Of a DNA stretch of 64,000 nt, positions 377-50,229 are shown in pieces. Positions within the stretch are counted from its first letter, which is position 1; every line of letters starts with the position of its first letter. This DNA comes from an uncultured Pseudomonadales bacterium (GTDB lineage Bacteria; Patescibacteriota; Microgenomatia; UBA1400; UBA1449): the NCBI GenBank assembly GCA_964386355.1, contig CAYLQQ010000003.1:69880-133879 (forward strand), written 5' to 3'. The notes beneath the pieces were generated by a model. It was not told the DNA's origin. It saw nothing but the letters and a program-made list of their open reading frames with translations, and did not search any database. A program made the position numbers and the translations under genes.

Positions 377-1288
377 ATGGCCAGTTCAATAGTTCCCATA
401 CAGGCAAGCACTCAGGAGCATATAGATATTTTAGATATACTGGATGATATTGTGATCTCCAAGGATGGGTCTTGTTCTATGATCTTACAAGTAACAGCAA
501 TAAATTTTGATCTTCTTTCCCAAACCGAACAAGATGCCATCATCTACGCATACGCAGGATTATTAAATTCACTCACCTTCCCGATTCAAATTATGATCCG
601 CTCGGCAATCAAAGATGTTACTAACTATATTAATCTTATAAAACAACAGGAACAGAAACAAAAAAAACAGCTATTATTGGACCAGTTAAAACAATATCGA
701 AGCTTTGTTGAAACCCTCATTAAAGACAATCGCGTTCTTGATAAGCGCTTTTTTGTTGTGATTCCCTTTTCTAGTCTAGAACTGGGATTGACCCCCACGC
801 TCGCATCATCGTTTAATAAAACAAAAAAATTGCCATACCCCAAGCCATATATTTTAGAGAGGGCAAAAATGAACCTATATCCAAAACGCGACCACCTTAT
901 GAGACAGTTTGCCCGCCTAGGCCTTCAATGTCGACAACTAAATACTCAACAGCTTATTGAGTTGTTTTTTAGTATTTACAACGAAGAGTCTGTGGGTCAA
1001 CGCATAGGAACAAGCAAAGAATACAGTGCACCAATGGTCACAGCCAAACAGGTGGCCAACCCAAAATCAGTTCCCACAATACCCATCTCTCAAGCCCAGG
1101 TTTCGGCTCAAGCCCAACATGCAATACCCGTGACACAACCACGTCCAATCAGTATCGTAGCAGAAACCGCACATACCCCCTCCCCTGTAACCCCAATAAT
1201 CCAACCATCAGAACAAAACATAGCTAATCAATCTCGAGTTGTTTATCAACCAAAAGAAACATCTGGCATACCATACGCCCAAAATTAA
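377..1288 (+). CDS. Hypothetical protein, possibly T4SS-associated; no TM segment and a Q/P/T-rich C-terminus
   Basis: ORF of 303 aa immediately upstream of the VirB4-like ATPase, with a 4-nt gap. No recognisable motif. Confidence 0.3.
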   Translation: MASSIVPIQASTQEHIDILDILDDIVISKDGSCSMILQVTAINFDLLSQTEQDAIIYAYAGLLNSLTFPIQIMIRSAIKDVTNYINLIKQQEQKQKKQLLLDQLKQYRSFVETLIKDNRVLDKRFFVVIPFSSLELGLTPTLASSFNKTKKLPYPKPYILERAKMNLYPKRDHLMRQFARLGLQCRQLNTQQLIELFFSIYNEESVGQRIGTSKEYSAPMVTAKQVANPKSVPTIPISQAQVSAQAQHAIPVTQPRPISIVAETAHTPSPVTPIIQPSEQNIANQSRVVYQPKETSGIPYAQN

Positions 1289-3157: not shown

Positions 3158-4267
3158 CTATATTTTCACCGGCATAATTATGTGTAAAGATGTAGTGCTT
3201 TTATTGTCTGAAAACTGCACGGGCGCCAAAGGACCATTACAAGCCATAACAATTTCATCCCCCACGGCTGACTTAACGTACTCCATTAAATATCTATAAT
3301 TAAAGGCAACGGAAAGTGGGTCGCCTTCAACAATTGCATCAACACTTGTTTCTGCTGACCCCCCTACCCCCTCTTTTGTAAAAAATCTTATTGCCTTGTT
3401 TTGAATTTCACACTGCACAATATTGGCTGACTGCCTGGCAAACAATGACACTTGTTTTATTGCCTGGGCGAGATCCCCCTTGTCGAGACGAACAGTCACG
3501 GAGGCTCCGGTGGGTAGTATCTTTTCAAATGGTGGAAAGTCACCCTGGATAAGCCGAATGTAAAACACTCGATCAGAGCCGATGAACCATACCCGACCAC
3601 CCTTTTTATCATAAGAGATTAAAATATCAGACTCACCGCCCCAATTTCGCAACAAACTAGCCAGGGGTTTGTATGGCACCAGCAAAATATCCTCCATCCC
3701 CTTGTCAAGCCGAACAGATGATAGGCTTAGCCTATACCCATCGCTGCCCACAATTTGCATACCCAACCCTTCTCTATATCTCATCAATACTCCTGCAAGA
3801 ACCGGTCGTGACTCGTCGGTTGCGACTGCTATAGACGCCCATTTTATGGCGAAAAGAAATTCCACTACCCCAATTTTGATAGCTCCGTTCTCCCGAGGCA
3901 TTTCCATGACGGGATACTCACTTAACTCAACCGTAGACATGGTGGCTCGACTTTTGCCGCTTTGTATTAAAAGCTTCCCCCTTTCTTCAAAGTCCAACTC
4001 AATCATTCCCCCTGGTAGTGTTGAAATGTATTCAGACAATGTCTGTGGGTTAATATACAGTTCTCCTTGCCCAACGATCTCCCCCTCCATCCACACCACC
4101 ACACCAGAGACTGAGTCACATGCCTCAACCTTTAATTGCCCCTCCCCCCACATAAGTCGTAAGGAAGAAAAAACCGGGTTAGATACATTGCCCTTAACAC
4201 AGCTCAGGGCTATGTTTATTGCATGTAAAAACTTGGATTGTTCAACAGTTGCTTTTTGTTTGCTCAT
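3158..4267 (-). CDS. dnaN: DNA polymerase III beta sliding clamp
   Basis: 369 aa. Immediately downstream of dnaA on the same strand. Three-domain clamp-like sequence with an N-terminus typical of DnaN. Confidence 0.85.
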   Translation of the reverse strand: MSKQKATVEQSKFLHAINIALSCVKGNVSNPVFSSLRLMWGEGQLKVEACDSVSGVVVWMEGEIVGQGELYINPQTLSEYISTLPGGMIELDFEERGKLLIQSGKSRATMSTVELSEYPVMEMPRENGAIKIGVVEFLFAIKWASIAVATDESRPVLAGVLMRYREGLGMQIVGSDGYRLSLSSVRLDKGMEDILLVPYKPLASLLRNWGGESDILISYDKKGGRVWFIGSDRVFYIRLIQGDFPPFEKILPTGASVTVRLDKGDLAQAIKQVSLFARQSANIVQCEIQNKAIRFFTKEGVGGSAETSVDAIVEGDPLSVAFNYRYLMEYVKSAVGDEIVMACNGPLAPVQFSDNKSTTSLHIIMPVKI

Positions 4268-4492: not shown

Positions 4493-5875
4493 CTATCCAT
4501 ACATTTCTTTGCGAAGTGTGGATATCTCCATCTGGAGCTTAGGGGAGACACTAATAATTTTTGCAACCTTTTCCACAGCATGCATAACTGTTGTATGGTC
4601 TCTGCCCCCAAACATACGGCCGATTTCCATAAACGACACACCAAGGTCGTTTTTGAGGAGATACATTGCGTATTGGCGGGGAGTGACAATAGGCTTGGAT
4701 CTTCTGGGGCCAATAAGAGCCTGGGTTGGTATATCATAGTATTTTGACACTACCCTTACAACCTCCTTGGGGTTTATGTACGTTTTTGGTTTTGAAAGAC
4801 CATCTGTCGCTTCCTTTTTTAACATTTTTAATATCATTGGTCTTGATATGGGTTCTTTTGTAAATGTGCTTGTGGCAGAAAGTTTTGTTAAAAACCCCTG
4901 AAGCATCCGAGTTGAGGTTATTTCTGAGGCTATTTCCTGTGCCAGGTCCATGGGTAGGTTTATATCCATTTGTTTTGATTTGATAAGTAAAATAGCCGTT
5001 CTTAGTTCAAAATTTGGTTGTTGAATATCAATAATAAGTCCTTCCTCAAACCGCGAACGCAACCTGTCTTCTAAAAGTTGTATTTCCGAGGGTGGTCGGT
5101 CAGAGGTGAGAATGATTTGTCCCCCACTGGATTGTATGGCATTAAACGTATGAAAAAACTCTTCCTGAACTGTATTTTTCCCGGCGATAAACTGAATATC
5201 ATCAATAAGCAATCCGTCTACATGGCGATATTTGTTTCTAAACTGGGGAGTTCGCTTGTTTCGAATTGCCTCAATGATTTCGTTTGTAAAATGTTCTCCG
5301 GGACAGTAAATGAGCTTAAATTCTGGGTTGCGCTCTAGAATCCGTATCCCTATTGCCTGCATAAGGTGGGTTTTGCCAACACCCACATCGCCATATAAAA
5401 ATAATGGGTTATATGACGTCCCTGGATTTTTGGCTACAGCTGTAGCGGCTGCATACGCAACTTCATTGGTTGGAGAAACGGCAAAATTCTCAAAGGTGTG
5501 AGTGGTACGCAAGCCCGATCTTCGGATTGAGTTTTCTACGAGAGATTCTTGTTTTTGTTGATTAACAAATTCTTGCGTTTCTTGGCTAAAAAGATCTGGA
5601 ATTGTAGTTTTTGCTTGCTGGCTTGCGATCTGAAACGACACACTTACGGATTCTCGTAGAAGATTGCTAATGGTGGTGGTGACAAGCTCTAGGTGGTTTT
5701 TTGTCAAATAATCCTGAACAAAAATATTTGGACAGGATATAATGATTGTTGTATCGGCGTCTGTTTTTTTTATTTCCTGGATGTGGGTTTTTGCAAAATA
5801 CAAATTGAAATGGGAAAACGATATGTTTGGCTTTAGCTGTTCGAGTGTATTTGTCCAGAGGTTTTCTGTATTCAT
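4493..5875 (-). CDS. dnaA: Chromosomal replication initiator DnaA
   Basis: Walker A GDVGVGKTHL. C-terminal DnaA DNA-binding helix-turn-helix ...TPRQYAMYLLKNDLGVSFMEIGRMFGGRDHTTVMHA. Confidence 0.9.
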   Translation of the reverse strand: MNTENLWTNTLEQLKPNISFSHFNLYFAKTHIQEIKKTDADTTIIISCPNIFVQDYLTKNHLELVTTTISNLLRESVSVSFQIASQQAKTTIPDLFSQETQEFVNQQKQESLVENSIRRSGLRTTHTFENFAVSPTNEVAYAAATAVAKNPGTSYNPLFLYGDVGVGKTHLMQAIGIRILERNPEFKLIYCPGEHFTNEIIEAIRNKRTPQFRNKYRHVDGLLIDDIQFIAGKNTVQEEFFHTFNAIQSSGGQIILTSDRPPSEIQLLEDRLRSRFEEGLIIDIQQPNFELRTAILLIKSKQMDINLPMDLAQEIASEITSTRMLQGFLTKLSATSTFTKEPISRPMILKMLKKEATDGLSKPKTYINPKEVVRVVSKYYDIPTQALIGPRRSKPIVTPRQYAMYLLKNDLGVSFMEIGRMFGGRDHTTVMHAVEKVAKIISVSPKLQMEISTLRKEMYG

Positions 5876-23417: not shown

Positions 23418-23576
23418 GCTTTTACTAAGTTTGAAGTACACAAAATGTACTAAAAGGCAGTCCCACTTCACTTTAAAAAGCTTCGCGGAACACACTCCGC
23501 ATCAATGATCACACTAATACGAAAAATAAGAGTGGCCTGCCACGCGAAGCACTTTCTGTTAAGAAAGTGCGGAGTG

Positions 23577-24002
23577 TGGAGATGGGGGGAATCGCACCCC
23601 CGTCTAGCTTTGACTTCTCAATCGTCTACACACGTAGTTTGCTAGTGTACTGAAAAGATGATTAGCAAACGACTCATGTCTTTTCAGTTTAGCCTAAATT
23701 TGATTCCGCTTGGCAATTACGGAACTACACCTATCGTTTGGTTTCACCCACAATCGACTCCGATAAGAAAAGTTATTGTGAATGTCCTTAGAAGCAATTA
23801 AGCGTATAAAGCATTAACTACTGGTCTTTGGAAACTGGCAACTGTTTCGCGGATACTTTCTTTGGCATCAGCTACTACTCGTTGAACTCCAGTTTTGATG
23901 ACGCGTACGTCAGCATTTGTGTTTTGAAATTGTTTTACGACTACATTTCAAAGTCGGTGTGCAGATTTTCAAAGAACAAAACTGTCGAATCTAGGCATCC
24001 CC
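23577..24002 (-). ncRNA. ssrA: tmRNA (transfer-messenger RNA)
   Basis: The reverse-complement 5' end GGGGATGCCTAGATTCGACAG parallels the canonical GGGGCUGAUUCUGGAUUCGACGGG. The 3' end ...GACGGGGGTGCGATTCCCCCCATCTCCA forms a T-arm plus acceptor that pairs with the 5' GGGGATG, including a G3:U70 wobble. The gene lies about 1 kb from smpB and CCA is not encoded. Confidence 0.7.
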
Positions 24003-25009: not shown

Positions 25010-25020
25010 AAAATAATCTG

Positions 25021-25103
25021 CGGAAGGGGCGAGATTCGAACTCGCGAAGCTTTCGCTTGCCGGTTTTCAAGACCGGTGCACTCGACCACTATGCGACCCT
25101 TCC
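25021..25103 (-). tRNA. tRNA-Ser (anticodon UGA), class II with a long variable arm
   Basis: Reverse complement GGAAGGGTCGCATAGTGGTCGAGTGCACCGGTCTTGAAAACCGG...GCGAGTTCGAATCTCGCCCCTTCCG folds as a cloverleaf. Anticodon loop CTTGAAA. Confidence 0.85.
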
Positions 25104-25400
25104 ATCAAAATTTCTTGCTTACTGCATTATTTAAACTTACTGATTTGACCACTACCCTGTTGTATTAACAACAGGGCGGCCTGTTCCTATCGGAACATGC
25201 ACGGTGCGACCCTTCCAGATATCCAATTTTCCGAACTTTTCTATCAAACAATCGGATTTGACCACTATACTAAAACTTTCAGTTTCAGCAAGATCTCTCT
25301 GTGCTTTGCACAAAATAGATGCGGTACGATTCTTCCCTGATGTGCTATTTTAACCCGAAACGGACAACTTTTCATCTTGGGTTATCGGCTCAATTTGTGC
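25104..25400. repeat. Three degenerate direct-repeat units, each containing a copy of the tRNA-Ser 5' end (tgcgacccttcc) and ending in gatttgaccac
   Basis: Unit ...ggtgcgacccttccagatatccaattttccgaacttttctatcaaacaatcggatttgaccac at 25203-25265 is about 95% identical to 28938-29003. A weaker copy gcggtacgattcttccctgat is at about 25320. Confidence 0.5.
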
Positions 25401-25414
25401 TATTATAAACTACT

Positions 25415-26041
25415 ATGGATCAAGTACATACTTCTCAAACTGACCCACATACAAACCAAAATTTTGATCCCAACGTAGCTACCTACCAAGAACCAATGCC
25501 TGTGTCTGTAGTTCGTGAACCGATGAAAGTACTTTTGGCATGGAGATCAGCGTCAAGGCCTTTTGAGCGAAAAGACAGGGAATTTTATACGACAGCTGGT
25601 TCAATCATTTTTCTCGTGTGTGTAATTCTGCTATTTATTAAAGAATTTCTTTTTATTATGGCCATCATTGCCATGGCCTTTTTTTATTACATTATTACTT
25701 CGGTTGAGCCTGAAAAAGTTGAACACAGGATCACAAATAAAGGGGTATTTTCTATTGATAAACTGTATGAATGGGCTCAATTAGGACGGTTTTGGTTTGA
25801 AACTAAACTTGGACAGGAAGTAGTAATGATAGAAAATTTTGTTAGCTTGCCACCTCGTCTCATGATTGTGTTAGGAGAACAAAAGAAAGAAGCAATCCAA
25901 TCAATATTAGAAAAATACTTGATCATGGAAAAACCTGAGCTTGGTCAAGTAGAAAAAATGGGTGCCTGGTTACAAAAGAAGGTTAATGTTGAAAGTTCAA
26001 CGCAAACAAAGTCCCCAAATCCACCCCAAACTAAACCCTGA
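25415..26041 (+). CDS. Hypothetical membrane protein
   Basis: ORF of 208 aa with central TM helices. Confidence 0.4.
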   Translation: MDQVHTSQTDPHTNQNFDPNVATYQEPMPVSVVREPMKVLLAWRSASRPFERKDREFYTTAGSIIFLVCVILLFIKEFLFIMAIIAMAFFYYIITSVEPEKVEHRITNKGVFSIDKLYEWAQLGRFWFETKLGQEVVMIENFVSLPPRLMIVLGEQKKEAIQSILEKYLIMEKPELGQVEKMGAWLQKKVNVESSTQTKSPNPPQTKP

Positions 26042-26086
26042 TAAATTGCTTTTAATCTGATAAAATATCGATTGCAGAAATGGATT

Positions 26087-26158
26087 GCTCTCATAGTTCA
26101 ATGGATAGAACAGGGGTTTGCGGAACCTCAGATGCAAGTTCGATTCTTGCTGGGAGCA
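26087..26158 (+). tRNA. tRNA-Arg; the anticodon reads GCG
   Basis: GCTCTCA-TA-GTTC-AATGGATA-GAAC-A-GGGGT-TTGCGGA-ACCTC-AGAT-GCAAG-TTCGATT-CTTGC-TGGGAGC-A. CCA is not encoded. Confidence 0.7.
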
Positions 26159-26164
26159 CTAAAT

Positions 26165-26193
26165 GAGACCGTTAGATTTTGGTCTCTTTTTTT
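26165..26193 (+). terminator. Rho-independent terminator after tRNA-Arg
   Basis: gagacc-gttagattttg-ggtctc followed by TTTTTTT. Confidence 0.5.
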
Positions 26194-26407
26194 ACGAGTT
26201 ATAACTGTATTATCATACCTAATTGCTGTTTCCACTAGGTGAAATGCAATTTTCCTTATCTCATAGTAGGCTTATAAGTAATTCGATTTGTCGTTCTTAG
26301 TTTTATTCTAATCCGTTTCTTTGTGAAACACCCCACTTCTTCAATTGAACTCGTATCTTTATAGTTTCCAATTACGGACTAAAAAACGAGACCGTTTTCT
26401 AACGGTT

Positions 26408-26482
26408 GCGCACTAAATACGTCATATGGATAGAACAGGGGTTTGCGGTCCCGCATATGCGGGACGATTCCAGCTGGGAGCA
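26408..26482 (+). pseudogene. tRNA-like remnant, chimeric: the D/anticodon region is identical to tRNA-Arg(GCG) and the 3' T/acceptor end resembles tRNA-Arg(CCG). It has no pairing 5' acceptor strand
   Basis: atggatagaacaggggtttgcgg is shared with 26099-26122. ...acgattccagctgggagca is shared with the 29618-29640 T-arm/acceptor. The 5' strand gcgcact cannot pair with TGGGAGC. Confidence 0.45.
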
Positions 26483-26500
26483 CGTATTATTGCTAAGCTA

Positions 26501-27280
26501 CTATTTTAGAAAAGATGCAGCCTCCTGATCTATAAATATCTTTACCTTTTCTCCCACATTTCTCAGAGCTGATGCTGGACAATCTTCAGATATAGGATCT
26601 AGTAAGCTTTCTCTAAGCAGCTCGGCATATTTTGTACCATAACAAACCAGTAGTATTTCTTTTGAATCAAGGATGGTCCCAATACCTTGGGTTAGGGCAG
26701 ACTCGGGTGAAGACTGTCCCCGTTCTTTCTGGTCACGCTCAACCGTTTCTTTACATAGTTGTGCGAGGTGAGTTCGCGAGGAAAAAGAAGTACCCCGCTC
26801 GTTAAATCCTATATGACACCCCGGTCCTATTCCGAGTATGGAAAGTTCGATTGGGTGTCGTGCAATCAACTCCTCATAGTGTAATGCCTCTTGTTTCGGA
26901 TCTTGTGCTTCTCCGTTTAGTGAGAAAATGCGTTCAGGAGCAATATGGAAAGGTCGATAAACGAGATCAGTCAGATATTTGACAAAACTGTAGGGCTCAG
27001 TCGGGTTGCATGGGAAATACTCATCAAGGTGAAATGCATATGTGTTACTAAAATCAGTTGTGCCGGATTCGATAAACTTAGATATTTCCTGGTAAACAGC
27101 TATTTTCGAATTGCCTGTAGCGTAACTGACAACCAGATCGGGTTTACTGCCAACCCTATCTGCAATGTAGGAAGCACATCCCTGGGATGTGGCCATCTCA
27201 TCAGAGTAGATGCGAATTTCTTTGATTTCGGGGTGAAAAAATGTTGTGTAGTTCATATATCTATGTATAGCACTACACAT
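26501..27280 (-). CDS. nagB: Glucosamine-6-phosphate deaminase/isomerase family (NagB/6-phosphogluconolactonase fold)
   Basis: VVSYATGNS and AFHLDEYFP motifs. Confidence 0.65.
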   Translation of the reverse strand: MCSAIHRYMNYTTFFHPEIKEIRIYSDEMATSQGCASYIADRVGSKPDLVVSYATGNSKIAVYQEISKFIESGTTDFSNTYAFHLDEYFPCNPTEPYSFVKYLTDLVYRPFHIAPERIFSLNGEAQDPKQEALHYEELIARHPIELSILGIGPGCHIGFNERGTSFSSRTHLAQLCKETVERDQKERGQSSPESALTQGIGTILDSKEILLVCYGTKYAELLRESLLDPISEDCPASALRNVGEKVKIFIDQEAASFLK

Positions 27281-27285
27281 ATATT

Positions 27286-28092
27286 TTATGAAGAGGTTAA
27301 TCCTTTAGATTTTAAAATTACCCGCTTCATATACGCATCAATAATTTTACCTAGTAACTTTTTAAATATACTTAAACGCACGGGATAAAAGTAATCTGAC
27401 TCAAACCAACCCATTTCCTTAAAGTGATTATGGTCTTTATTATCTTGCTGACTGTACTTGTGGCCTGAGCGGGTCAAATGGAAAATAAGAACTCTGAAAA
27501 GACTAGGACTGTATTTATTCACCGATGATAAAGCCCCTTCAATTCTCTGAATCTGTTTTTGCAGACCACGTTCAATCATACGCTGTTCGTTTTTGCTCCA
27601 GGCTAGTCCCGGATTGTATGCACCCGAGGTTAGGGTGAAGATACTTCCTTTCACAAAAATACCGCCCCAGAACCCTACTGTATCTTTGAAGTATTTTTCA
27701 ATCGTATCTCCACCATATACTCCCTGGGTAATGATTGAGGAAAAAACTTTCTTGAAAAAACGAGGTCGGTGATAGACAAATGCAAAGCGGTCAAAGAAAT
27801 TTTTCATCAAACCCGATACGTTTAGAGAGTAATTTGGGGTAGTAAATACAATACAGTCTGCTCTGTCCATCTTTTCTAAGATCATAGTCTTATCGTCTTT
27901 GAGCGGACATAGGTCTTCACCTCTAGAAAGGCAAACGGCACAACCTTTGCACATCTGCAGATTGAGGTCCTTTAAGTAAAGTACTTCGGTTTTGTATCTA
28001 TCTTCTAATAGTTCAACAAAACGTTTGACCACCCGTTGAGATTGACCTATGCGCGGGCTTCCGGCAATGATGAGGATCTTTTTCATATTCAA
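27286..28092 (-). CDS. Flavodoxin-like NAD(P)H-dependent FMN reductase / iron-sulfur flavoprotein family
   Basis: KKILIIAGSPRIGQS (flavodoxin-like P-loop) and CKGCAVCLSRGEDLCP (Cys cluster). Confidence 0.5.
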   Translation of the reverse strand: MNMKKILIIAGSPRIGQSQRVVKRFVELLEDRYKTEVLYLKDLNLQMCKGCAVCLSRGEDLCPLKDDKTMILEKMDRADCIVFTTPNYSLNVSGLMKNFFDRFAFVYHRPRFFKKVFSSIITQGVYGGDTIEKYFKDTVGFWGGIFVKGSIFTLTSGAYNPGLAWSKNEQRMIERGLQKQIQRIEGALSSVNKYSPSLFRVLIFHLTRSGHKYSQQDNKDHNHFKEMGWFESDYFYPVRLSIFKKLLGKIIDAYMKRVILKSKGLTSS

Positions 28093-28123
28093 GTTTTTTA
28101 ATGGATATAGAATTGAGAAAATC

Positions 28124-28810
28124 TTATAGATTTATACTTTTGGCTGCAAATTCTTTTTCTATGGAAATTTTCAAATCATTGAGAAGATATGGAAGGTGAG
28201 ACTTACCAATCTCAGTTTTTACTCTTTTCGGAAACATCTCTCTGAATTCTCCATACACTCGTAGCCACTCTGAGGGTTGGTATTTCTCCTTTAAATGGTC
28301 AATCGTCAACTTACTTAAATTGTCTGCATCAACAATAATTGCCTCGTCGTCAGTATTTGAAGCGTGTTCGTCAGCTGCATGGATAAGACGATTGATGGTT
28401 TTTATGTCCTTTGGCAAGTATTTTAATTTTTTTAAAAAGTTGATTGTGAATTTTTTCGAATTATCGTTAGCTTGTCTCTCAAATTGTAGGAGTTCGTCAA
28501 AAGTAATTTTCTTATCGCTAGACAAAACATCTCTCCAGCCAATATCGTGGATATATGCTGCGCTAATGAGAAGGGGCAAATAATCCCTTCCTTTTCCTAG
28601 TTTTTTCACCCACTCTACGACTCGCCTGGCATGGTTCCAATCGCCAGGACGACATCGTGAAATTTCTTTCTCAGCTTTTGATTTAAAAATGTCTTCATTA
28701 AAATTCATATCATTTGGATAATTTTGACTGGCGGAGGGGGCGAGATTTCCATTCGTCTCACTTCGTTCGCTCAGGATAGCCACGTGCTTTGCACTTGGTT
28801 GACTTCTCAT
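28124..28810 (-). CDS. HD-domain phosphohydrolase; start trimmed because the listed ORF overlaps tRNA-Ser(CGA)
   Basis: AAYIHDIGW and ADEH-type HD motifs. Upstream in-frame Met codons are at about 28708 and 28810; the start is uncertain. Confidence 0.45.
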   Translation of the reverse strand: MRSQPSAKHVAILSERSETNGNLAPSASQNYPNDMNFNEDIFKSKAEKEISRCRPGDWNHARRVVEWVKKLGKGRDYLPLLISAAYIHDIGWRDVLSSDKKITFDELLQFERQANDNSKKFTINFLKKLKYLPKDIKTINRLIHAADEHASNTDDEAIIVDADNLSKLTIDHLKEKYQPSEWLRVYGEFREMFPKRVKTEIGKSHLPYLLNDLKISIEKEFAAKSINL

Positions 28811-28864
28811 CTCGCCTTCATTGAAAAGAAAGAATCGGCATTTGAGCCGACTTTTTCTTTTCAG

Positions 28865-28953
28865 CGGAAGGGGCGAGATTCGAACTCGCGATATACCTTG
28901 CGGCATATGCCGATTTTCGAAATCGGTGCACTCGACCTCTATGCGACCCTTCC
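28865..28953 (-). tRNA. tRNA-Ser (anticodon CGA), class II
   Basis: Reverse complement GGAAGGGTCGCATAGAGGTCGAGTGCACCGATTTCGAAAATCGG...GCGAGTTCGAATCTCGCCCCTTCCG. Anticodon loop TTCGAAA. Confidence 0.85.
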
Positions 28954-29018
28954 AGATATTCAATTTTCCGAACTTTTCTATCAAACAATCGGATTTGACC
29001 ACGGTGCGACCCTTCCAG
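28954..29018. repeat. 49-bp spacer plus a 16-nt duplicate of the tRNA-Ser 5' end (ggtgcgacccttccag), immediately upstream of the tRNA-Ser(CGA) 5' end. Same unit as 25203-25265
   Basis: agatattcaattttccgaacttttctatcaaacaatcggatttgaccac ggtgcgacccttccag. Confidence 0.5.
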
Positions 29019-29162
29019 TATTCATGTATGTTTTTTTCTTTATTAACGCCAATTTTTACATGCCCTTGTTTTTGTTCCTCGCACTGCTTTTCAATCTGGT
29101 GTGACCATTCAATAACACTGGTATTATCTCACACAATCTTAAAAAGGGAGAATTTATGCAGA

Positions 29163-29549
29163 CTATGAGTTGTTACTTATAGACTTTTCGCCATACAGGA
29201 GGCGTGTTTTCATATCCATGTACTCTTTTAAGCCAACAATAGCAATGATTAGACTACTGATCGACAAACTTATGCCAATTACAAGCGAAAAAGTATCAGT
29301 AGAAAATAGTTTTATTACACTGACTCCGGAACCCATCAACATAAGAGATGTACGCACATAAGCTAGGAACGTACGCTTATTTGCCATCCGGGTTCTGTCG
29401 ATAGCTAAGTAATCTCTTAAGATTAGATTGTCTTGGGTGTTTTCACTTTCTGAGTTAGACATACTAGGGTGATTGTAAAGGCATAGACACGGCCATTTCA
29501 ATCCTAAATCTCTTGTCTCATGATATATAATATGTGGAACTGTAATCAT
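29163..29549 (-). CDS. DUF202/YidH-family small membrane protein
   Basis: RDYLAIDRTRMANKRTFLAYVRTSLML motif followed by three TM helices. Confidence 0.6.
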   Translation of the reverse strand: MITVPHIIYHETRDLGLKWPCLCLYNHPSMSNSESENTQDNLILRDYLAIDRTRMANKRTFLAYVRTSLMLMGSGVSVIKLFSTDTFSLVIGISLSISSLIIAIVGLKEYMDMKTRLLYGEKSISNNS

Positions 29550-29568
29550 ATATTATTAGATTAGCAAT

Positions 29569-29640
29569 GCTCTCATAGTTCAATGGATAGAATGTGGGTT
29601 TCCGGAACCTAAGATGCTGGTTCGATTCCAGCTGGGAGCA
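29569..29640 (+). tRNA. tRNA-Arg (anticodon CCG)
   Basis: GCTCTCA-TA-GTTC-AATGGATA-GAAT-G-TGGGT-TTCCGGA-ACCTA-AGAT-GCTGG-TTCGATT-CCAGC-TGGGAGC-A. Confidence 0.85.
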
Positions 29641-29671
29641 CTTTTGTAAAATAATATATAATTAAGTACCT

Positions 29672-30397
29672 ATGGACATTTTTGCAGTTTCGCAGTTCAA
29701 GTTTCCCTACCTTGACCTCAAATTTCCCGGCCAACACAGTGAAGAGCGAATTCTGTTTGTGACACGGGAAGGTTTGATTGTGCTTCGGGCTAAACTCGTT
29801 GCAGCTTTCACTGTACTTACTCTTGCTATGATTCTTGGTATTACTATTCTCTCAAGCTTCTCAATACTCGATTTTACATTTTCAGTTCTTATTCTGCCGT
29901 TTGTGGTTGTGTGGGGATTATTTTTTGTTTTTATTCCCTGGTGGATATATACCGTCTGGCGTAAGACCTTATTTATTGTCACTACGCGTCGTTTGACAAA
30001 ATTTATTCACACAACCCCCTGGTCCAGATATCAAATGTCATTAGGTCTTGATGCTATTTCCGATACAGGTGCCTATCAGAAGGGCTTTTTCCAGATACTG
30101 TTTGGCTTGGGCTATTTTGTAGCCCGTTCTCCCGCTGGGGCTGTTAAAAATTTTAAAATCATCAATATTGGATTTGCAGAGGACCTGCACAATTACGTCA
30201 ACAAATTACTATTTGTTTTTAACGAAAAAAAGCAAGATATTGACAGGTTTCGTCCATTTATTCCCAGCATGAAAGGTGAAATGCGAGATGAGTATGTCCG
30301 CAAAGTCGCTCCCCAGTATAGTAAGCCCAAACGGGTATTACCTCAGGCAGAAGGAGAGTATCTACCGGGTGATCAAACTAAACAACTTCCTCAATAA
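29672..30397 (+). CDS. Hypothetical membrane protein (four TM)
   Basis: ORF of 241 aa; no motif recognised. Confidence 0.4.
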   Translation: MDIFAVSQFKFPYLDLKFPGQHSEERILFVTREGLIVLRAKLVAAFTVLTLAMILGITILSSFSILDFTFSVLILPFVVVWGLFFVFIPWWIYTVWRKTLFIVTTRRLTKFIHTTPWSRYQMSLGLDAISDTGAYQKGFFQILFGLGYFVARSPAGAVKNFKIINIGFAEDLHNYVNKLLFVFNEKKQDIDRFRPFIPSMKGEMRDEYVRKVAPQYSKPKRVLPQAEGEYLPGDQTKQLPQ

Positions 30398-30398
30398 T

Positions 30399-30923
30399 AT
30401 GGACACAAGGGAAGAATTTTCTGCTGGTGGTGTAGTATACGCGTACCAACAACCAACAACCAACAACCAACAACCTATTTTTCTTCTGGGTAAACATTCT
30501 GGGTATCATAAGTGGGTTTTACCGAAAGGGTTAATCGAGCAAGGTGAAAAACCAGAAGAAACAGCTGTGCGGGAAACGGAAGAGGAGATGGGGGTGGTAG
30601 CAAAACTGGCAAAACCTGATCCTATACATATAGAAAGATACTCCTACACTGCTGACTATAAAATACCCCTGGATATTTCACTGCAGACATCACAAAGCTC
30701 ACGGAGAGTAAAGAACTATCAGGAAACTGGTGGAAGTGGAGTGTTAGTCAATAAAACAGTTACGTTATATCTTATGGAGTGGGTGAGCGGTGATCCCCAA
30801 AAAGATCATGGTTGGGAAATGGAAGAAGCAGGATGGTTTGACTACAAAACCAGTCTTGAGATGATGGGGTTTGAGGGGGAGAAGAAAGCACTAGAGAAAG
30901 CAATGGAAATTCTTTTAAAATAA
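30399..30923 (+). CDS. NUDIX hydrolase
   Basis: Nudix box GLIEQGEKPEETAVRETEEEMGV. The start is placed at the ATG at 30399 (MDTREEF), immediately after the upstream gene's stop. Confidence 0.75.
   Translation: MDTREEFSAGGVVYAYQQPTTNNQQPIFLLGKHSGYHKWVLPKGLIEQGEKPEETAVRETEEEMGVVAKLAKPDPIHIERYSYTADYKIPLDISLQTSQSSRRVKNYQETGGSGVLVNKTVTLYLMEWVSGDPQKDHGWEMEEAGWFDYKTSLEMMGFEGEKKALEKAMEILLK
30448..30475. repeat. Heptanucleotide tandem repeat (AACAACC)x4 inside the NUDIX coding sequence (encodes QQPTTNNQQP)
   Basis: Read directly: aacaacc x4, preceded by a partial acc. Confidence 0.85.
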
Positions 30924-31149
30924 AGACTTACCCTTTTTGGTGATAGACGATAAAATACCACCTGAAGCATAAAAGTAAATTGAGCTTTATTTCCCAGACT
31001 ACATGCTTCATAATTCGGTATCTTAATAGGAGGAGTCGCCCCGCGCCAAATCATATTTCAATATGATATGGCCGTCCCGCGAAGTGAAACGAAGCGGGAT
31101 AGTGGTCAAATATGTTTGTTTGATAGTTGAGTAAGTAAAATAAAAACCT

Positions 31150-31237
31150 GGAGGAGTCGCCTAGTGGTTCATGGCGCACGCCTGGAAAGCGTGTATGCTT
31201 CGTGCATTCGCGAGTTCGAATCTCGCCTCCTCCGCCA
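31150..31237 (+). tRNA. tRNA-Ser (anticodon GGA), class II, with CCA encoded
   Basis: GGAGGAG-TC-GCC-TAGTGGTTCAT-GGC-GCACGC-CTGGAAA-GCGTG-(long variable arm)-GCGAG-TTCGAAT-CTCGC-CTCCTCC-G-CCA. Confidence 0.85.
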
Positions 31238-48882: not shown

Positions 48883-48907
48883 GTTACATATTGATATGTA
48901 GCTATCT

Positions 48908-49618
48908 ATGTATTATGATTTATACATGGGATATCAAGGAAAATATCAAGAGAAGCAACTAGCAATTAATCTTCGCTCTCAAGGATTGTCGTACTCCGAA
49001 ATATATAAACACATTACAGTGTCAAAAGATACACTAAGCAGATGGTGCAGAGATGTTCTTTTAGACGATAATCAGATCAAATTATTGCAACAAAAAAGGA
49101 TTAATGGCGGTCAAAAAGGAGGTATAGTTGCATCAGAAAATAAAAAAAGAAAACGGATAAAGATAACAGAAAGAATAACCAGGGATGCAATTATTGAAAT
49201 TGGTAGGTTAAATGATAGAGAAATTTTTCTTGTGGGTGTTGCCCTATACTTAGGCGAGGGGTTGAAGGGAGATTGTGAGGTTGGGTTTACCAATGGGAAC
49301 ACTAAGGTTATTGAATTTATGATGTTTTGGTTTAGAAAAGTATGTAAAGTGGCAGAAAGTAAGTTTAGAGGTCAAATATGGATCCACGACAACCTTGACA
49401 TGGTAAAGGCAAAACACTTTTGGCACAAATTAACTGGAATACCCTTAAGTCAGTTTAGGAAAACATATATTGCTAAAAACAATAATAATTCAAAAAAAAT
49501 ACGCAAACAAATCCATGAGAATGGAATATTTGCAATAAAAATATCTGATGTAAAATTACAAAGGAGAATACTGGGATGGTGTGCTGGAATTTTAGATCAA
49601 GTTAAGGTAAAATCGTAA
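48908..49618 (+). CDS. Hypothetical protein with an N-terminal HTH and a LAGLIDADG-like segment; possible homing-endonuclease relative
   Basis: LRSQGLSYSEIYKHITVSKDTLSRWCRDV (HTH) and FLVGVALYLGEGLKGD (weak LAGLIDADG-like). Lies immediately upstream of the intron-containing tRNA-Asn. Confidence 0.3.
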   Translation: MYYDLYMGYQGKYQEKQLAINLRSQGLSYSEIYKHITVSKDTLSRWCRDVLLDDNQIKLLQQKRINGGQKGGIVASENKKRKRIKITERITRDAIIEIGRLNDREIFLVGVALYLGEGLKGDCEVGFTNGNTKVIEFMMFWFRKVCKVAESKFRGQIWIHDNLDMVKAKHFWHKLTGIPLSQFRKTYIAKNNNNSKKIRKQIHENGIFAIKISDVKLQRRILGWCAGILDQVKVKS

Positions 49619-49748
49619 GGTTATTTTAAATTCCCCGATAGCTTCAGCGAAGCAATCCCTGAGGATATTATCCGAAAGGGACAATGGCATTTGCCAGGTT
49701 CGAATTTATGAAAACTGAAGTAAAAGGGAAAGTTTGACAATTTAATAT

Positions 49749-50132
49749 TCCCCGATAGCTCAATGGCAGAGCATTCGCCTGTTAGAAAATAGCAGCGCCT
49801 TGCAGTAATGTGAGGATGAAAAGTGGGTGAATTCAGGGAAACCTAATTCAAAAGTATTGTTCCCTTTTTTTAGTGGAATAGGCGCGAAGCCGCCTTTAGG
49901 GTTTTACCTACAAAATACTTAAGATATGGTAATCCTGAGCCAAGTTTTTCACTATTTTAAAAAATTTAGTGAGAAAAAGGTGCAGAGACTAGCTGATTAC
50001 AGCAGGCTTGGCCTACGGCCAGGCACAGCGCCCACTCTCCAATAGTTTGGAGAAAGAGATAGTCCATGCTGTGGTGAAAGCCATAGGTTACATGTAAGCG
50101 AAGGGTTCCTGGTTCGAGTCCAGGTCGGGGAG
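49749..50132 (+). tRNA. Split tRNA-Asn (anticodon GUU): 5' exon 49749-49782 and 3' exon 50095-50132, interrupted in the anticodon loop by a candidate group I intron of about 312 nt
   Basis: The exons give TCCCCGA-TA-GCTC-AATGGCA-GAGC-A-TTCGC-CTGT|TAA-GCGAA-GGGTT-CCTGG-TTCGAGT-CCAGG-TCGGGGA-G. The acceptor (7/7) and anticodon stem (5/5) pair perfectly across the insertion. The 5' exon ends in U and the insert ends in G (acatg|taagcgaa). GCAG at 49792-49795 can pair with the exon end CUGU as a P1. Confidence 0.55.
49783..50094 (+). ncRNA. Candidate self-splicing (group I-like) intron within tRNA-Asn(GUU)
   Basis: Inference from exon complementarity, insert length and terminal nucleotides. The P3-P9 core could not be verified by eye. 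Confidence 0.4.
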
Positions 50133-50229
50133 CATTTCTATGGATTTCTACGATTTTCTTCGGATTTTTTCATCACCATACACTCATACAAGCGTAGCTT
50201 AATCCTCATATTCTCGGTATAGTAATTAT

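Follow-up and report, generated by a model that had tools for sequence, protein, structure and literature searches.

The 64-kb stretch of DNA analyzed here (the window) carries a tRNA-Asn(GUU) gene that is split between positions 35 and 36 of the anticodon by a genuine group I intron (Table 1). Introns of this kind are already known; the new part is the gene that flanks it, which encodes a homing-endonuclease-like protein and which is almost always located beside such split tRNA genes. We hold with moderate confidence a reading of the whole locus in which an ORF-less, IA-type intron would move together with a free-standing homing endonuclease (collaborative homing), and in which a decayed tRNA copy between the two would be a scar.

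Table 1. Features of the split tRNA-Asn locus (coordinates are those of the window).
Feature	Coordinates	Strand	Basis and remarks
Free-standing gene for an HTH + single-LAGLIDADG-domain protein, 230 aa; candidate homing endonuclease	48926-49618	+	Longest ORF from 48908
Degenerate, non-functional tRNA-Asn copy, ~78 nt, that holds the 14-nt repeat	49631-49708 (about)	+	Alignment to spliced tRNA
Spacer ending in AT-rich motif TTGACAATTTAATAT, found before tRNA-Asn in relatives	49709-49748	+	ORF-to-tRNA spacer comparison
tRNA-Asn(GUU) gene, split at anticodon 35/36	49749-50132	+	Exons + 312-nt intron
5' exon, tRNA positions 1-35, last nucleotide U35	49749-49782	+	ARAGORN on joined exons; Rfam P1 alignment
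Group I intron, 312 nt, without ORF, terminal G50094	49783-50094	+	RF00028 match and covariation
P1, CCUGU/UA (49779-49784; slash, splice site) x internal guide UAGCAG (49790-49795)	49779-49795	+	Rfam alignment
P2 hairpin, 7 bp, GUAA loop	49798-49815	+	94% of cells paired; compensatory changes in 7/7 pairs
P3 5' strand, partner 50029-50036	49822-49829	+	Inner pairs well supported; outer pairs blurred by MAFFT alignment
P4 (49833-38 x 49933-38) and P5 (49842-43 x 49928-29)	49833-49938	+	P4 99-100% paired, P5 98% paired
P6 and P6a/b	49939-49981	+	Rfam alignment; basal pairs 98% paired
P7 5' strand (guanosine-binding helix), partner 50060-50065	49985-49991	+	Six pairs, 98.8% paired, nearly invariant (n = 70)
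Two small P7.1/P7.2-like hairpins between P7 and P3'	49992-50026	+	35-nt insertion in Rfam alignment
P8 hairpin	50037-50052	+	Rfam alignment; region aligned poorly among homologs
P9 hairpin, GAAA loop	50069-50086	+	96.6% of cells paired; compensatory changes in 6/7 pairs
3' exon, tRNA positions 36-73	50095-50132	+	ARAGORN; comparison with intron-less tRNA-Asn

The sequence-only reading had described a tRNA-Asn(GUU) with an intron in its anticodon loop, and all of the elements that it described are present where it placed them. When the exons are joined, ARAGORN calls a canonical 72-nt tRNA-Asn(GUU); the discriminator, G50132, is the end of the mature tRNA, that is, the CCA is not encoded. Relatives do have intron-less tRNA-Asn genes, as that reading had thought worth checking; these align with the spliced tRNA without gaps (82% and 76% identity), and the exon junction (TCGCCTGT joined to TAAGCGAAGGG) is identical in both. 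ARAGORN found no further tRNA-Asn within the 64-kb window. In default mode the program misses the tRNA at 49749-50132; in intron mode it detects the gene, places the splice site off by two bases, and labels the product tRNA-Thr(GGU). We preferred Asn to this label on three grounds: the U.G pair in P1, the rule that the intron ends in G, and the identity with intron-less tRNA-Asn. With an essential gene overlooked by default tRNA finders and mislabeled by intron-aware tools, a complete genome can seem to be without tRNA-Asn.

An Infernal search with the Rfam group I intron model is strongly positive: RF00028 (gathering score, 50 bits) matches 49773-50086 over its full length (model positions 1-253 of 253) with 96.1 bits and an E-value of 1.6e-23. 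The splice-site signals that had been noticed from the letters are borne out by this alignment: the U that ends the 5' exon forms the conserved P1 U.G pair (U49782.G49792) inside a 6-bp P1, the GCAG near the 5' end of the intron is part of the internal guide sequence, and G50094 is the last nucleotide of the intron, directly before the 3' exon UAAGCG. The P3-P9 core, which could not be confirmed by eye, is now covered by the full-length alignment and by covariation across 70 homologs. In these, 83.1% of the cells in the core helices are paired as compared with 69.0% in shuffles (0/500 as high), and pairing falls to 34-50% when the helix partners are slid; in P2, P4, P5, P7, and P9, pairing reaches 94-100% and compensatory changes are numerous (e.g., CG/GC and AU/GC/CG swaps in P4), and the covariation alignment is of poor quality at P8 and distal P6. 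Two segments are insertions in the Rfam alignment: a window-specific extension of P5 (~69 nt; fold -20.8 kcal/mol, z -1.8) and the hairpins between P7 and P3' (fold -19.0 kcal/mol, z -4.3). These hairpins fit subgroup IA, and the intron is probably of IA type, the assignment itself being that of Nakagawa et al. (PMC13011429) for the tRNA-Asn introns of Patescibacteria. In an intron-anchored scan, the 35/36 intron is present in all 120 loci with enough flanking sequence (120/120), and the same tRNA-Asn split occurs in >180 loci overall.

The suggestion that the intron would bring tRNA-Asn into the list of bacterial tRNAs known to carry group I introns has been overtaken by the literature. Nakagawa et al. 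(mSystems 2026, PMC13011429; preprint 2025) reported tRNA-Asn(GUU) introns at 35/36 in 15/95 complete Patescibacteria genomes, found that two related introns self-splice in vitro with no protein, and already documented the ARAGORN mis-call of the split gene as tRNA-Thr. They credit earlier tFind work with the first detection of the 35/36 site; the text of the 2020 tFind preprint makes no mention of Asn, so knowledge of the site before 2025 rests on their citation of tFind.

Upstream of the tRNA gene, the HTH/LAGLIDADG-like ORF that had been noted at 48908-49618 does encode both of these domains; its true start is probably the ATG at 48926, because the N-terminus of the family is MGYxGK. An N-terminal HTH is linked by a 45-residue helix to a LAGLIDADG-like domain, which has the alpha-bb-alpha-bb-alpha order of the LAGLIDADG fold, gives a weak match to I-DmoI (E 0.0035) in a profile search of PDB sequences, and carries the motif ..LYxx(E/D)GxK, in which Y114, E/D117, G118, and K120 are 100% conserved (91/91 homologs). 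No Pfam LAGLIDADG model matches the protein, the only Pfam match being HTH_23 at 23.7 bits (below the cut-off); NCBIfam gives no LAGLIDADG match either, only weak HTH matches to transposase models. The ORF is located outside of the intron: in the window, 130 nt separate its end from the 5' exon, and in relatives this distance is usually 3-36 nt. We considered whether the ORF of relatives might be placed within the P1 or P2 loop of the intron and rejected this, since in every case the 5' exon comes after the ORF.

This ORF belongs to a conserved family (ORF228) that is associated with split tRNA genes, and its position beside one is no coincidence. In metagenomes, a split tRNA-Asn is found directly downstream of the ORF228 homolog in 66/69 distinct evaluable homologs; in a paralogous sister family (412 hits), a split initiator tRNA-Met(CAU) with an intron at 33/34 is located 84-106 nt away in 6/6 loci. 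These 66 and 6 loci pair a free-standing endonuclease-like gene with an ORF-less intron. The intron frequencies beside the two families are 96% and 100%, as compared with published base rates of 16% and 2% (the latter from 2/95 Patescibacteria genomes with split initiator tRNA-Met; PMC13011429). The order dnaG-rpoD-ORF-tRNA is common to the window and to Patescibacteria-type MAGs, and the named homologs are nearly all labeled Patescibacteria, Microgenomates, Woesebacteria, or Berkelbacteria, with one Nevskiaceae label. The host is accordingly placed in the ultra-small Patescibacteria (CPR). The contexts upstream of ORF228 vary between loci, and some loci have the ORF between rpoD and tRNA-Asn whereas others do not, a difference that is seen even among MAGs labeled Daviesbacteria. 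ORF228 and an intron-internal HNH gene never occur together. Introns longer than 312 nt are found in 0/74 ORF-linked loci and in 5/21 ORF-less Patescibacteria-labeled loci (hypergeometric p ~3.5e-4, uncorrected for phylogeny).

By homology to the introns that splice in vitro, we envisage folding of the intron into P1-P9 once the precursor is transcribed, followed by attack of an external guanosine after U49782, the U of the P1 U.G pair; the freed 5' exon would then attack after G50094, so that the exons are ligated into a functional tRNA-Asn. From the conserved motif and the linkage, the likeliest role of the upstream protein appears to be that of a free-standing homing endonuclease that moves with the ORF-less intron. 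The enzyme, probably a homodimer, would cut the intron-less tRNA-Asn gene at or near the palindromic DNA of the anticodon arm. The broken allele would then receive a copy of both the endonuclease gene and the intron, which lie about 55-170 bp from each other. The one pointer to the intron insertion site as the putative target is this palindrome, which is centered at position 35 and is split by the introns at both 33/34 and 35/36. If the target is indeed the insertion site, the intron would shield the host allele and both would be co-inherited, as in the model of collaborative (trans) homing of phage group I introns reviewed by Hausner et al. (2014, PMC3984707). The cases there are the free-standing endonuclease F-CphI of cyanophage S-PM2, whose gene neighbors the psbA intron, and mobE of T4, which is paired with the I-TevIII intron.

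Among the points in favor of this reading are a truncated copy of the ORF (L101) and displaced tRNA 5' fragments in several loci. Against it, two lineages (L189/191/192 and L197) keep an intact ORF, with the motif, directly upstream of an intron-less tRNA-Asn whose anticodon arm is identical to that of the split genes; an enzyme that cuts this site should cut its own chromosome. Upstream of tRNA-Asn in ORF-less loci no relics of ORF228 were found, bar the truncated copy of L101; with nearly all copies of the ORF intact, the pattern resembles prolonged vertical transmission under selection more than a selfish cycle of gain and decay. The divergence of the ORF follows that of RpoD (Mantel test; Spearman 0.54, p ~5e-4), an intermediate value that is not decisive between vertical and horizontal transmission.

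LAGLIDADG maturases stabilize intron folds in organelles, and the upstream protein might similarly be a maturase, a splicing helper that would bind the intron RNA and keep it folded in vivo, possibly while acting as an endonuclease too. The tight linkage, seen at two different split tRNA genes, would suit this role, as would the apparent cotranscription of the gene with the tRNA across gaps of 3-36 nt; its long-term conservation and partial co-divergence with RpoD fit a benefit to the host, and the ORF-linked introns, which are the most reduced (median 206.5 nt vs 256 nt for ORF-less loci), could depend on a protein. However, the homologous tRNA-Asn introns self-splice in vitro without one, ~70% of the intron-bearing Patescibacteria-labeled loci are without the ORF, and the intron in the window is long, with extra stabilizing hairpins; also, the strictly conserved catalytic acidic residue and the N-terminal HTH suggest that the protein cleaves and binds DNA. 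We regard a maturase as unlikely.

WhiA is a LAGLIDADG-derived regulator that has lost the catalytic acidic residues, and the protein could, in the same way, be a domesticated DNA-binding regulator that remains near the tRNA for regulation or by synteny and is unrelated to the intron. In many genomes the ORF does sit in a conserved dnaG-rpoD neighborhood, and both the copies beside intron-less tRNA-Asn and the correlation with RpoD divergence would be expected of a regulator. Nevertheless, the catalytic residue that WhiA has lost is kept throughout the family (E/D117), and two paralogous families are found beside two split tRNA genes in unrelated neighborhoods and in different orientations; with the intron frequencies given above so far over their base rates, synteny alone is insufficient, and we judge this explanation to be distinctly improbable.

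[quoted passage not shown] The 14-nt duplicate of the tRNA 5' end that had been noticed at 49629-49642 is real, and it is the start of this longer degenerate copy, which appears to be intron-less and has suffered damage to its D-loop, anticodon loop, and 3' half. Aligned locally with the mature tRNA, it reaches a score of 42 (shuffles, 16.9 +/- 3.2, maximum 26), with a z-score of 6.7 against the whole spacer. The copy starts 12 nt past the stop codon of the ORF, that is, at the place of the real 5' exon in relatives, and the fold of 49629-49748 as a whole is better than that of shuffles (z -3.2). A scan for promoters and terminators gave nothing above chance. Analogous displaced tRNA 5' fragments occur in other loci (L115, L151/L156). 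Those in the window and in L115 are likelier to be independent events than a duplication shared by recent common ancestry, because the two are not close (51% identity for the ORF, 65% for RpoD). Descent of the window's spacer from the GIY-YIG insert of L151, as a relic, is not supported; the two resemble each other weakly (z 2.4), mostly through the shared tRNA fragment and AT-rich ends.

The fallback offered by the sequence-only reading, that there is no intron and that the tRNA halves and the 14-mer are att-type fragments of an integrated element, deserves practically no credence: a partial tRNA copy does lie upstream and serine recombinase genes adjoin tRNA-Asn in some relatives, but the full-length 96-bit group I match falls exactly between the halves, the joined exons give a tRNA, the splice-site rules are obeyed, the core helices covary, the same split recurs in >180 loci, the flanking genes called on the matching contig (L001, 6.7 kb) encode a Na/Ca exchanger and RsgA, and none encodes an integrase, and what is duplicated is the tRNA 5' end, located upstream and enclosing only ~105 nt without a gene, whereas the att repeats of integrases are typically tRNA 3' ends located downstream.

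It has long been asked how group I introns and endonuclease genes came to be associated in the first place, and the basis for collaborative homing is two cases from phages. In the present data, a LAGLIDADG-type gene adjoins an ORF-less tRNA intron in hundreds of bacterial lineages, and two independent gene families show this arrangement. We tentatively propose, as a possibility that falls somewhat short of probable, that Patescibacteria have two paralogous families of free-standing HTH-LAGLIDADG endonucleases, each of which serves one ORF-less tRNA intron (Asn 35/36; initiator Met 33/34), mobilizing and maintaining it by collaborative homing on the chromosome. [quoted passage not shown] The recurrent linkage and the natural variation (loci with and without the ORF, loci with and without the intron, a truncated copy, intron-internal HNH genes, and displaced tRNA fragments) make the question of origin directly testable.

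The intron shares with those of Nakagawa et al. (PMC13011429) the host gene, tRNA-Asn(GUU), the insertion site (GU/U), the U before the 5' splice site, the 3'-terminal G, detection by RF00028, the ARAGORN miss or tRNA-Thr mis-call (their Table 1), the lack of an internal ORF, and IA-like hairpins between P7 and P3'. It differs in that, at 312 nt, it is longer than most of its ORF-less relatives, from the 69-nt P5 extension and a second post-P7 hairpin. Those authors sought endonuclease genes inside the introns only and concluded that mobility is limited; the flanking LAGLIDADG gene and the decayed tRNA copy are not mentioned. The classical bacterial tRNA introns, that is, those of cyanobacterial tRNA-Leu(UAA) at 34/35, tRNA-fMet at 33/34, and Azoarcus/Agrobacterium tRNA-Ile/Arg at 36/37, are mostly IC3, whereas this one is IA-like and is located at 35/36. 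The cyanobacterial tRNA-fMet introns contain an internal PD-(D/E)XK endonuclease; the Patescibacteria tRNA-fMet introns found here have no internal ORF and have the LAGLIDADG gene alongside. Further tRNA genes that are split in Patescibacteria are those for Asp and Tyr (35/36), Phe (33/34), and Thr (36/37).

As compared with I-CreI, I-CeuI, I-MsoI, and WhiA, the upstream protein is distinguished by matching no Pfam LAGLIDADG model, by the HTH joined through its long helix, and by a gene that is inside neither an intron nor an intein. Collaborative homing in phages involves protein-coding genes of the phage; here the putative cleavage and target would be on bacterial chromosomes and in tRNA genes, and two lineages keep the gene beside an intron-less tRNA. 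The enzyme family also differs, LAGLIDADG with an N-terminal HTH, in two paralogous families for two tRNA genes, and the arrangement is old and widespread, in hundreds of lineages.

The two sequence blocks that the sequence-only reading had joined into a tRNA-Asn cloverleaf interrupted by a group I intron do form such a gene: given the joined exons, ARAGORN calls a tRNA-Asn(GUU) whose acceptor stem pairs 7/7 and whose arms are standard, and the Infernal search that the reading had proposed as a check gives a decisively positive match of RF00028 to the intervening sequence (96.1 bits, gathering threshold 50, E 1.6e-23; all 253 model positions covered). We regard a split tRNA-Asn with a group I intron as virtually certain. 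The conserved P1 U.G pair of RF00028 falls on U49782.G49792 in the Rfam alignment, which places the 5' splice site after anticodon U35 and the intron terminus at G50094; the structural details noticed by eye (U before the 5' splice site, terminal G, and P1) were likewise correct. The spliced tRNA aligns without gaps to the intron-less tRNA-Asn(GUU) of related contigs (82% and 76% identity), and its junction, TCGCCTGTTAAGCGAAGGG, is identical in one of the two. Default ARAGORN calls no tRNA at 49749-50132; we rejected its intron-mode call, tRNA-Thr(GGU) at 49749-50133, in which the splice site is off by two bases. ARAGORN and tFind are known to miss intron-split tRNA-Asn genes or to call them tRNA-Thr (Nakagawa et al., PMC13011429). 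CCA is not encoded, and no second tRNA-Asn was found within the 64-kb window, which also contains a tmRNA gene (23574-24002, minus strand; Rfam 94 bits) and, at 25020-31237, five clustered tRNA genes (three Ser, two Arg).

Features of the split tRNA-Asn locus in the window, helices of its intron, and further loci of the tRNA-fMet sister family
Feature	Coordinates	Strand	Remarks
HTH-LAGLIDADG ORF	48908-49618 (probable start ATG 48926)	+	family of ~228 aa
14-nt repeat ATTCCCCGATAGCT	49629-49642		start of ~78-nt stretch aligning to mature tRNA
tRNA-Asn 5' exon TCCCCGATAGCTCAATGGCAGAGCATTCGCCTGT	49749-49782	+	read from sequence
Group I intron, 312 nt	49783-50094	+	Rfam RF00028
P1	49779-84 with 49790-95		
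P2	49798-804 with 49809-15		
P3	49822-29 with 50029-36		
P4	49833-38 with 49933-38		
P5	49842-43 with 49928-29		
P6	49939-40 with 49980-81		
P7	49985, 49987-91 with 50060-65		
P8	50037-42 with 50047-52		
P9	50069-75 with 50080-86		
tRNA-Asn 3' exon TAAGCGAAGGGTTCCTGGTTCGAGTCCAGGTCGGGGAG	50095-50132	+	read from sequence
Five further independent sister-family members (L207, L209, L211, L212/L213, L214)	tRNA ~1030-1420; ORF 1501-2178	tRNA -	contigs examined

The helix assignment is taken from the RF00028 alignment of the window intron and was tested on 70 homologous introns, drawn from many genomes and aligned with MAFFT, with column shuffles and sliding as controls. Standard pairs occupy 83.1% of the cells, compared with 69.0 +/- 0.4% after column shuffling (0 of 500 shuffles reach the observed value) and 34-50% after sliding the 3' partners by 1-3 columns; the covariation score is 0.371, compared with 0.138 shuffled and 0.07-0.125 slid. 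The paired cells amount to 94% in P2, 99-100% in P4, 98% in P5, 98.8% in P7 (nearly invariant), and 96.6% in P9, and compensatory changes are plentiful (e.g., the swaps CG/GC and AU/GC/CG in P4). Thus, P2, P4, P5, P7, and P9 are strongly supported; alignment quality blurs the pairing in outer P3, P8, and distal P6. Relative to the Rfam consensus, the window intron has two insertions, a 69-nt extension of P5 and a 35-nt segment, inserted between P7 (5' strand) and P3 (3' strand), that folds into two stable hairpins (-19.0 kcal/mol, z -4.3). Hairpins P7.1/P7.2 at this position are a hallmark of subgroup IA.

Group I introns at 35/36 have been described in 15 tRNA-Asn(GUU) genes from 95 complete Patescibacteria genomes; these introns belong to subgroup IA, as do nearly all 35/36 introns (Nakagawa et al., PMC13011429). 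The window intron therefore joins a known class, of which it is a somewhat enlarged member (312 nt), and the novelty that had been claimed for it falls. In vitro, one Asn and one Asp intron of this kind are spliced out precisely, mutation of the 3'-terminal G abolishes splicing, and endonuclease genes lie inside only 12 of 333 bacterial tRNA introns, four of the 12 being tRNA-Asn introns with HNH genes (PMC13011429). That paper mentions no maturase and no endonuclease gene that is free-standing, adjacent, or upstream, and our literature search found no other description of a flanking HTH-LAGLIDADG gene or of a sister family at tRNA-fMet.

The part worth pursuing is this conserved free-standing HTH-LAGLIDADG gene, together with its tRNA-fMet sister family. 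The ORF family has at least 152 matches (45-63% identity), and the named members are almost all Patescibacteria MAGs; the family N-terminus, MGYxGK, suggests that ATG 48926 is probably the real start in the window. A promoter-like TTGATA-17-TATGAT (10/12 matches, within 48891-48928) ends 7 nt 5' of this ATG, from which a nearly leaderless mRNA would follow; the number of such sites around the ORF is not above chance. Pfam returned nothing above cut-off for the ORF (HTH_23 sub-threshold only), and the NCBIfam matches are weak and confined to an HTH resemblance to transposases. AlphaFold, run with an alignment of 41 sequences, gave a confident model (pLDDT 88.4) in which an N-terminal HTH is joined by a 45-residue helix to an alpha-bb-alpha-bb-alpha module; Foldseek found no informative match for the whole chain, and the family sequence profile weakly matches I-DmoI (E 0.0035). 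The motif FxxGxxLYxx(E/D)GxK is strictly conserved, with Y114, E/D117, G118, and K120 present in 91/91 sequences; the acidic residue closing the LAGLIDADG helix is catalytic in active enzymes.

We sampled the linkage of the ORF to split tRNA-Asn in two ways, anchored on the ORF and on the intron. In the first four ORF homologues with contigs examined, a split tRNA-Asn starts ~20 nt past the ORF stop (4/4). A metagenome scan with the family alignment gave 80 ORF-anchored loci with 70 distinct ORF sequences, 69 of them evaluable: in 57, a split tRNA-Asn(GUU) lies no more than 80 nt from the stop codon; seven have the intron on a contig that stops short of the 3' exon; two near-identical loci (L151, L156) have the split gene 361 nt away, beyond an inserted GIY-YIG gene; two stand beside a tRNA-Asn that lacks the intron; and one carries a different insertion. 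The intron is thus present at 96% of the ORF-anchored loci vs 16% of the Patescibacteria genomes in the published survey. The intron-anchored sample, collected from species-representative genomes with an exact pattern (P7 3' strand plus 3' exon), comprises at least 120 loci, and every locus listed with sufficient flank rebuilds a tRNA-Asn(GUU) split at 35/36. Among the matches listed, the ORF occurs in 8 of ~29 evaluable Patescibacteria-labelled loci, always on the same strand and directly upstream, and a full-length ORF in none labelled as another phylum. The sole truncated relic among the loci examined abuts the split tRNA-Asn of a Ratteibacteria MAG, outside Patescibacteria by label (L101, ~1927-2296 oriented); it encodes only the N-terminal 90 residues (HTH and long helix), and the LAGLIDADG domain is absent.

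In many ORF-less Patescibacteria, two Daviesbacteria among them, rpoD directly precedes the split tRNA-Asn, and a third Daviesbacteria MAG carries the ORF; the insertion site of the ORF is therefore constant, and its presence varies. The neighbours upstream of the ORF-tRNA pair differ between loci. In eight intron-anchored loci (L025, L028, L046, L053, L056, L061, L084, L096), including some with non-Patescibacteria labels (e.g., Aminicenantes, 'Eubacteriales'), the split tRNA-Asn is preceded at 800-1100 nt by a sigma-70 family gene, so the rpoD-tRNA-Asn neighbourhood may predate the phylum. Just downstream of the tRNA-Asn 3' end, some relatives have a large serine recombinase gene (Resolvase + Recombinase; L003/L004 3977-5536 and L006 3953-5710, both minus strand), which suggests integration of genomic islands at their tRNA-Asn.

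A second family shows the same kind of association. An ORF paralogue in L020 (3861-4547; 136 bits to the family HMM), away from tRNA-Asn, adjoins another group I intron (tRNA region 4621-4970; Rfam 56.4 bits) that splits an initiator-type tRNA-Met(CAU), with the C1xA72 mismatch, between 33 and 34. This sister family (~225 aa, 412 matches) is likewise from Patescibacteria. Each of the five further members is accompanied by a split tRNA-Met(CAU) encoded on the other strand, the tRNA 5' end being 84-106 nt from the ORF start; the introns score 63-80 bits with Rfam in four of the five, and exon joining gives tRNA-Met(CAU) in all. The gene thus stands beside a split tRNA-fMet in 6/6 loci examined; introns of this kind number 2 in 95 Patescibacteria genomes (Nakagawa et al., PMC13011429).

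The region between ORF and tRNA-Asn also carries displaced tRNA sequence. The ~78-nt stretch in the window, which begins 12 nt past the ORF stop (the place of the functional 5' exon in relatives), aligns to the mature tRNA along its D and anticodon arms and into the T arm (5' half), with indels and without the 3' acceptor strand; its anticodon arm reads CCTG-AGGATA-TTATCCGAAAGGG vs CCTGTTAAGCGAAGGG in the mature tRNA. It is a decayed copy resembling an intron-less tRNA-Asn. The functional gene lies 118 nt further on, after a second copy of an AT-rich pre-tRNA motif: the spacer ends in TTGACAATTTAATAT (49734-49748), variants of which (TTCTTTTACAT, TTTTGACAA) directly precede tRNA-Asn in relatives. 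The spacer (49629-49748) folds better than shuffles (-31.5 kcal/mol, z -3.2). A Daviesbacteria MAG (L115, JACPDA010000004.1) has the same layout, with a 131-nt spacer from ORF stop to tRNA-Asn: the ORF stop is followed by a degenerate copy of the 5' part of the MAG's own tRNA-Asn, and GC-rich hairpins (~110 nt) separate this copy from the real gene; L115 is not close to the window (ORF 51%, RpoD 65% identity), so its event was probably independent. In L151/L156 (~3170-3533), the intact small GIY-YIG gene (PF01541, E 1.3e-15) comes after a displaced tRNA 5' fragment whose D-loop contains a GC-rich hairpin. Such fragments therefore arise repeatedly at the locus, and in our interpretation they would be scars left by duplications or by the repair of breaks. 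We rejected integrase att repeats for the 14-nt duplicate, which is a tRNA 5' end, lies upstream, and encloses ~105 nt without a gene or an adjacent integrase. A GIY-YIG gene (752-1015, minus strand) also lies near the tRNA-fMet unit of L214.

Some tRNA-Asn introns contain nuclease genes of their own. Among the matches listed, introns of 519-604 nt occur in 18 loci (L008, L013, L014, L019, L023, L024, L036, L045, L048, L051, L062, L067, L069, L070, L080, L093, L113, L116), none with a flanking LAGLIDADG gene; in each of six translated, the largest ORF is HNH-like (CxxCGY...FHH...CxNCH), and these six include loci labelled Nitrospira, Elusimicrobiota, and Deltaproteobacteria. Introns longer than 312 nt are found in 0/74 ORF-linked cases, compared with 5/21 ORF-less Patescibacteria-labelled ones among the matches listed (519-604 nt, HNH-like ORFs; p ~3.5e-4, uncorrected for phylogeny).

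In collaborative homing, known from two phage systems, an endonuclease encoded outside an ORF-less intron targets its insertion site (Hausner et al. 2014, PMC3984707). We favour, tentatively, such a role for the ORF as a free-standing homing endonuclease; the combined statement, the tRNA-Asn intron together with this role, we consider probable. This reading is supported by the LAGLIDADG fold with its conserved catalytic residue, by the close association with split genes for two tRNAs, by an ORF that comes and goes at a fixed site, by its mutual exclusion with intron-internal HNH genes, by the one truncated copy, and by a locus that attracts other nuclease genes (e.g., GIY-YIG in L151/L156). 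LAGLIDADG enzymes with a single domain normally work as homodimers at near-palindromic sites; the predicted target would be anticodon-arm DNA, which is naturally palindromic around position 35 and is interrupted at its centre by the 35/36 and 33/34 introns.

Three observations count against homing and keep two other explanations alive. In two lineages (L189/L191/L192, tRNA 3222-3294 in L189; L197, 3211-3285), an intact ORF homologue, its LAGLIDADG motif intact as well, immediately precedes a tRNA-Asn(GUU) that lacks an intron and has the same anticodon arm as the split genes; the divergence of the ORF is correlated with that of RpoD (Spearman 0.54, p ~5e-4); and the ORF copies are overwhelmingly intact, with no relics found in ORF-less loci. 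A maturase or splicing helper would agree with the ORF-linked introns being the shortest (median 206.5 nt, n=66, in the ORF-anchored loci vs 256 nt, n=99, without the ORF among the intron-anchored matches listed); however, homologous introns self-splice without protein and the ORF is absent from most intron-bearing genomes. We consider this role unlikely. Slightly less likely still is a domesticated WhiA-like DNA-binding regulator, which leaves both the conserved catalytic residue and the two-family pattern unexplained. A chance or purely syntenic association of the gene families with split tRNA genes is very unlikely.

Nakagawa et al. concluded that horizontal transfer of these introns is probably limited (PMC13011429). 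About three quarters of the matches listed (at least 120 loci) are labelled other than Patescibacteria (Nitrospira, Elusimicrobia, Aminicenantes, Binatia, Methylomirabilota, Omnitrophota, Margulisiibacteriota, cyanobacteria; some labels may be unreliable), so the spread of the tRNA-Asn 35/36 intron in MAGs is broader than that in their survey (9/28 in complete genomes). If the upstream protein is an active endonuclease, these loci would provide the first examples of collaborative homing in cells and on a large scale.
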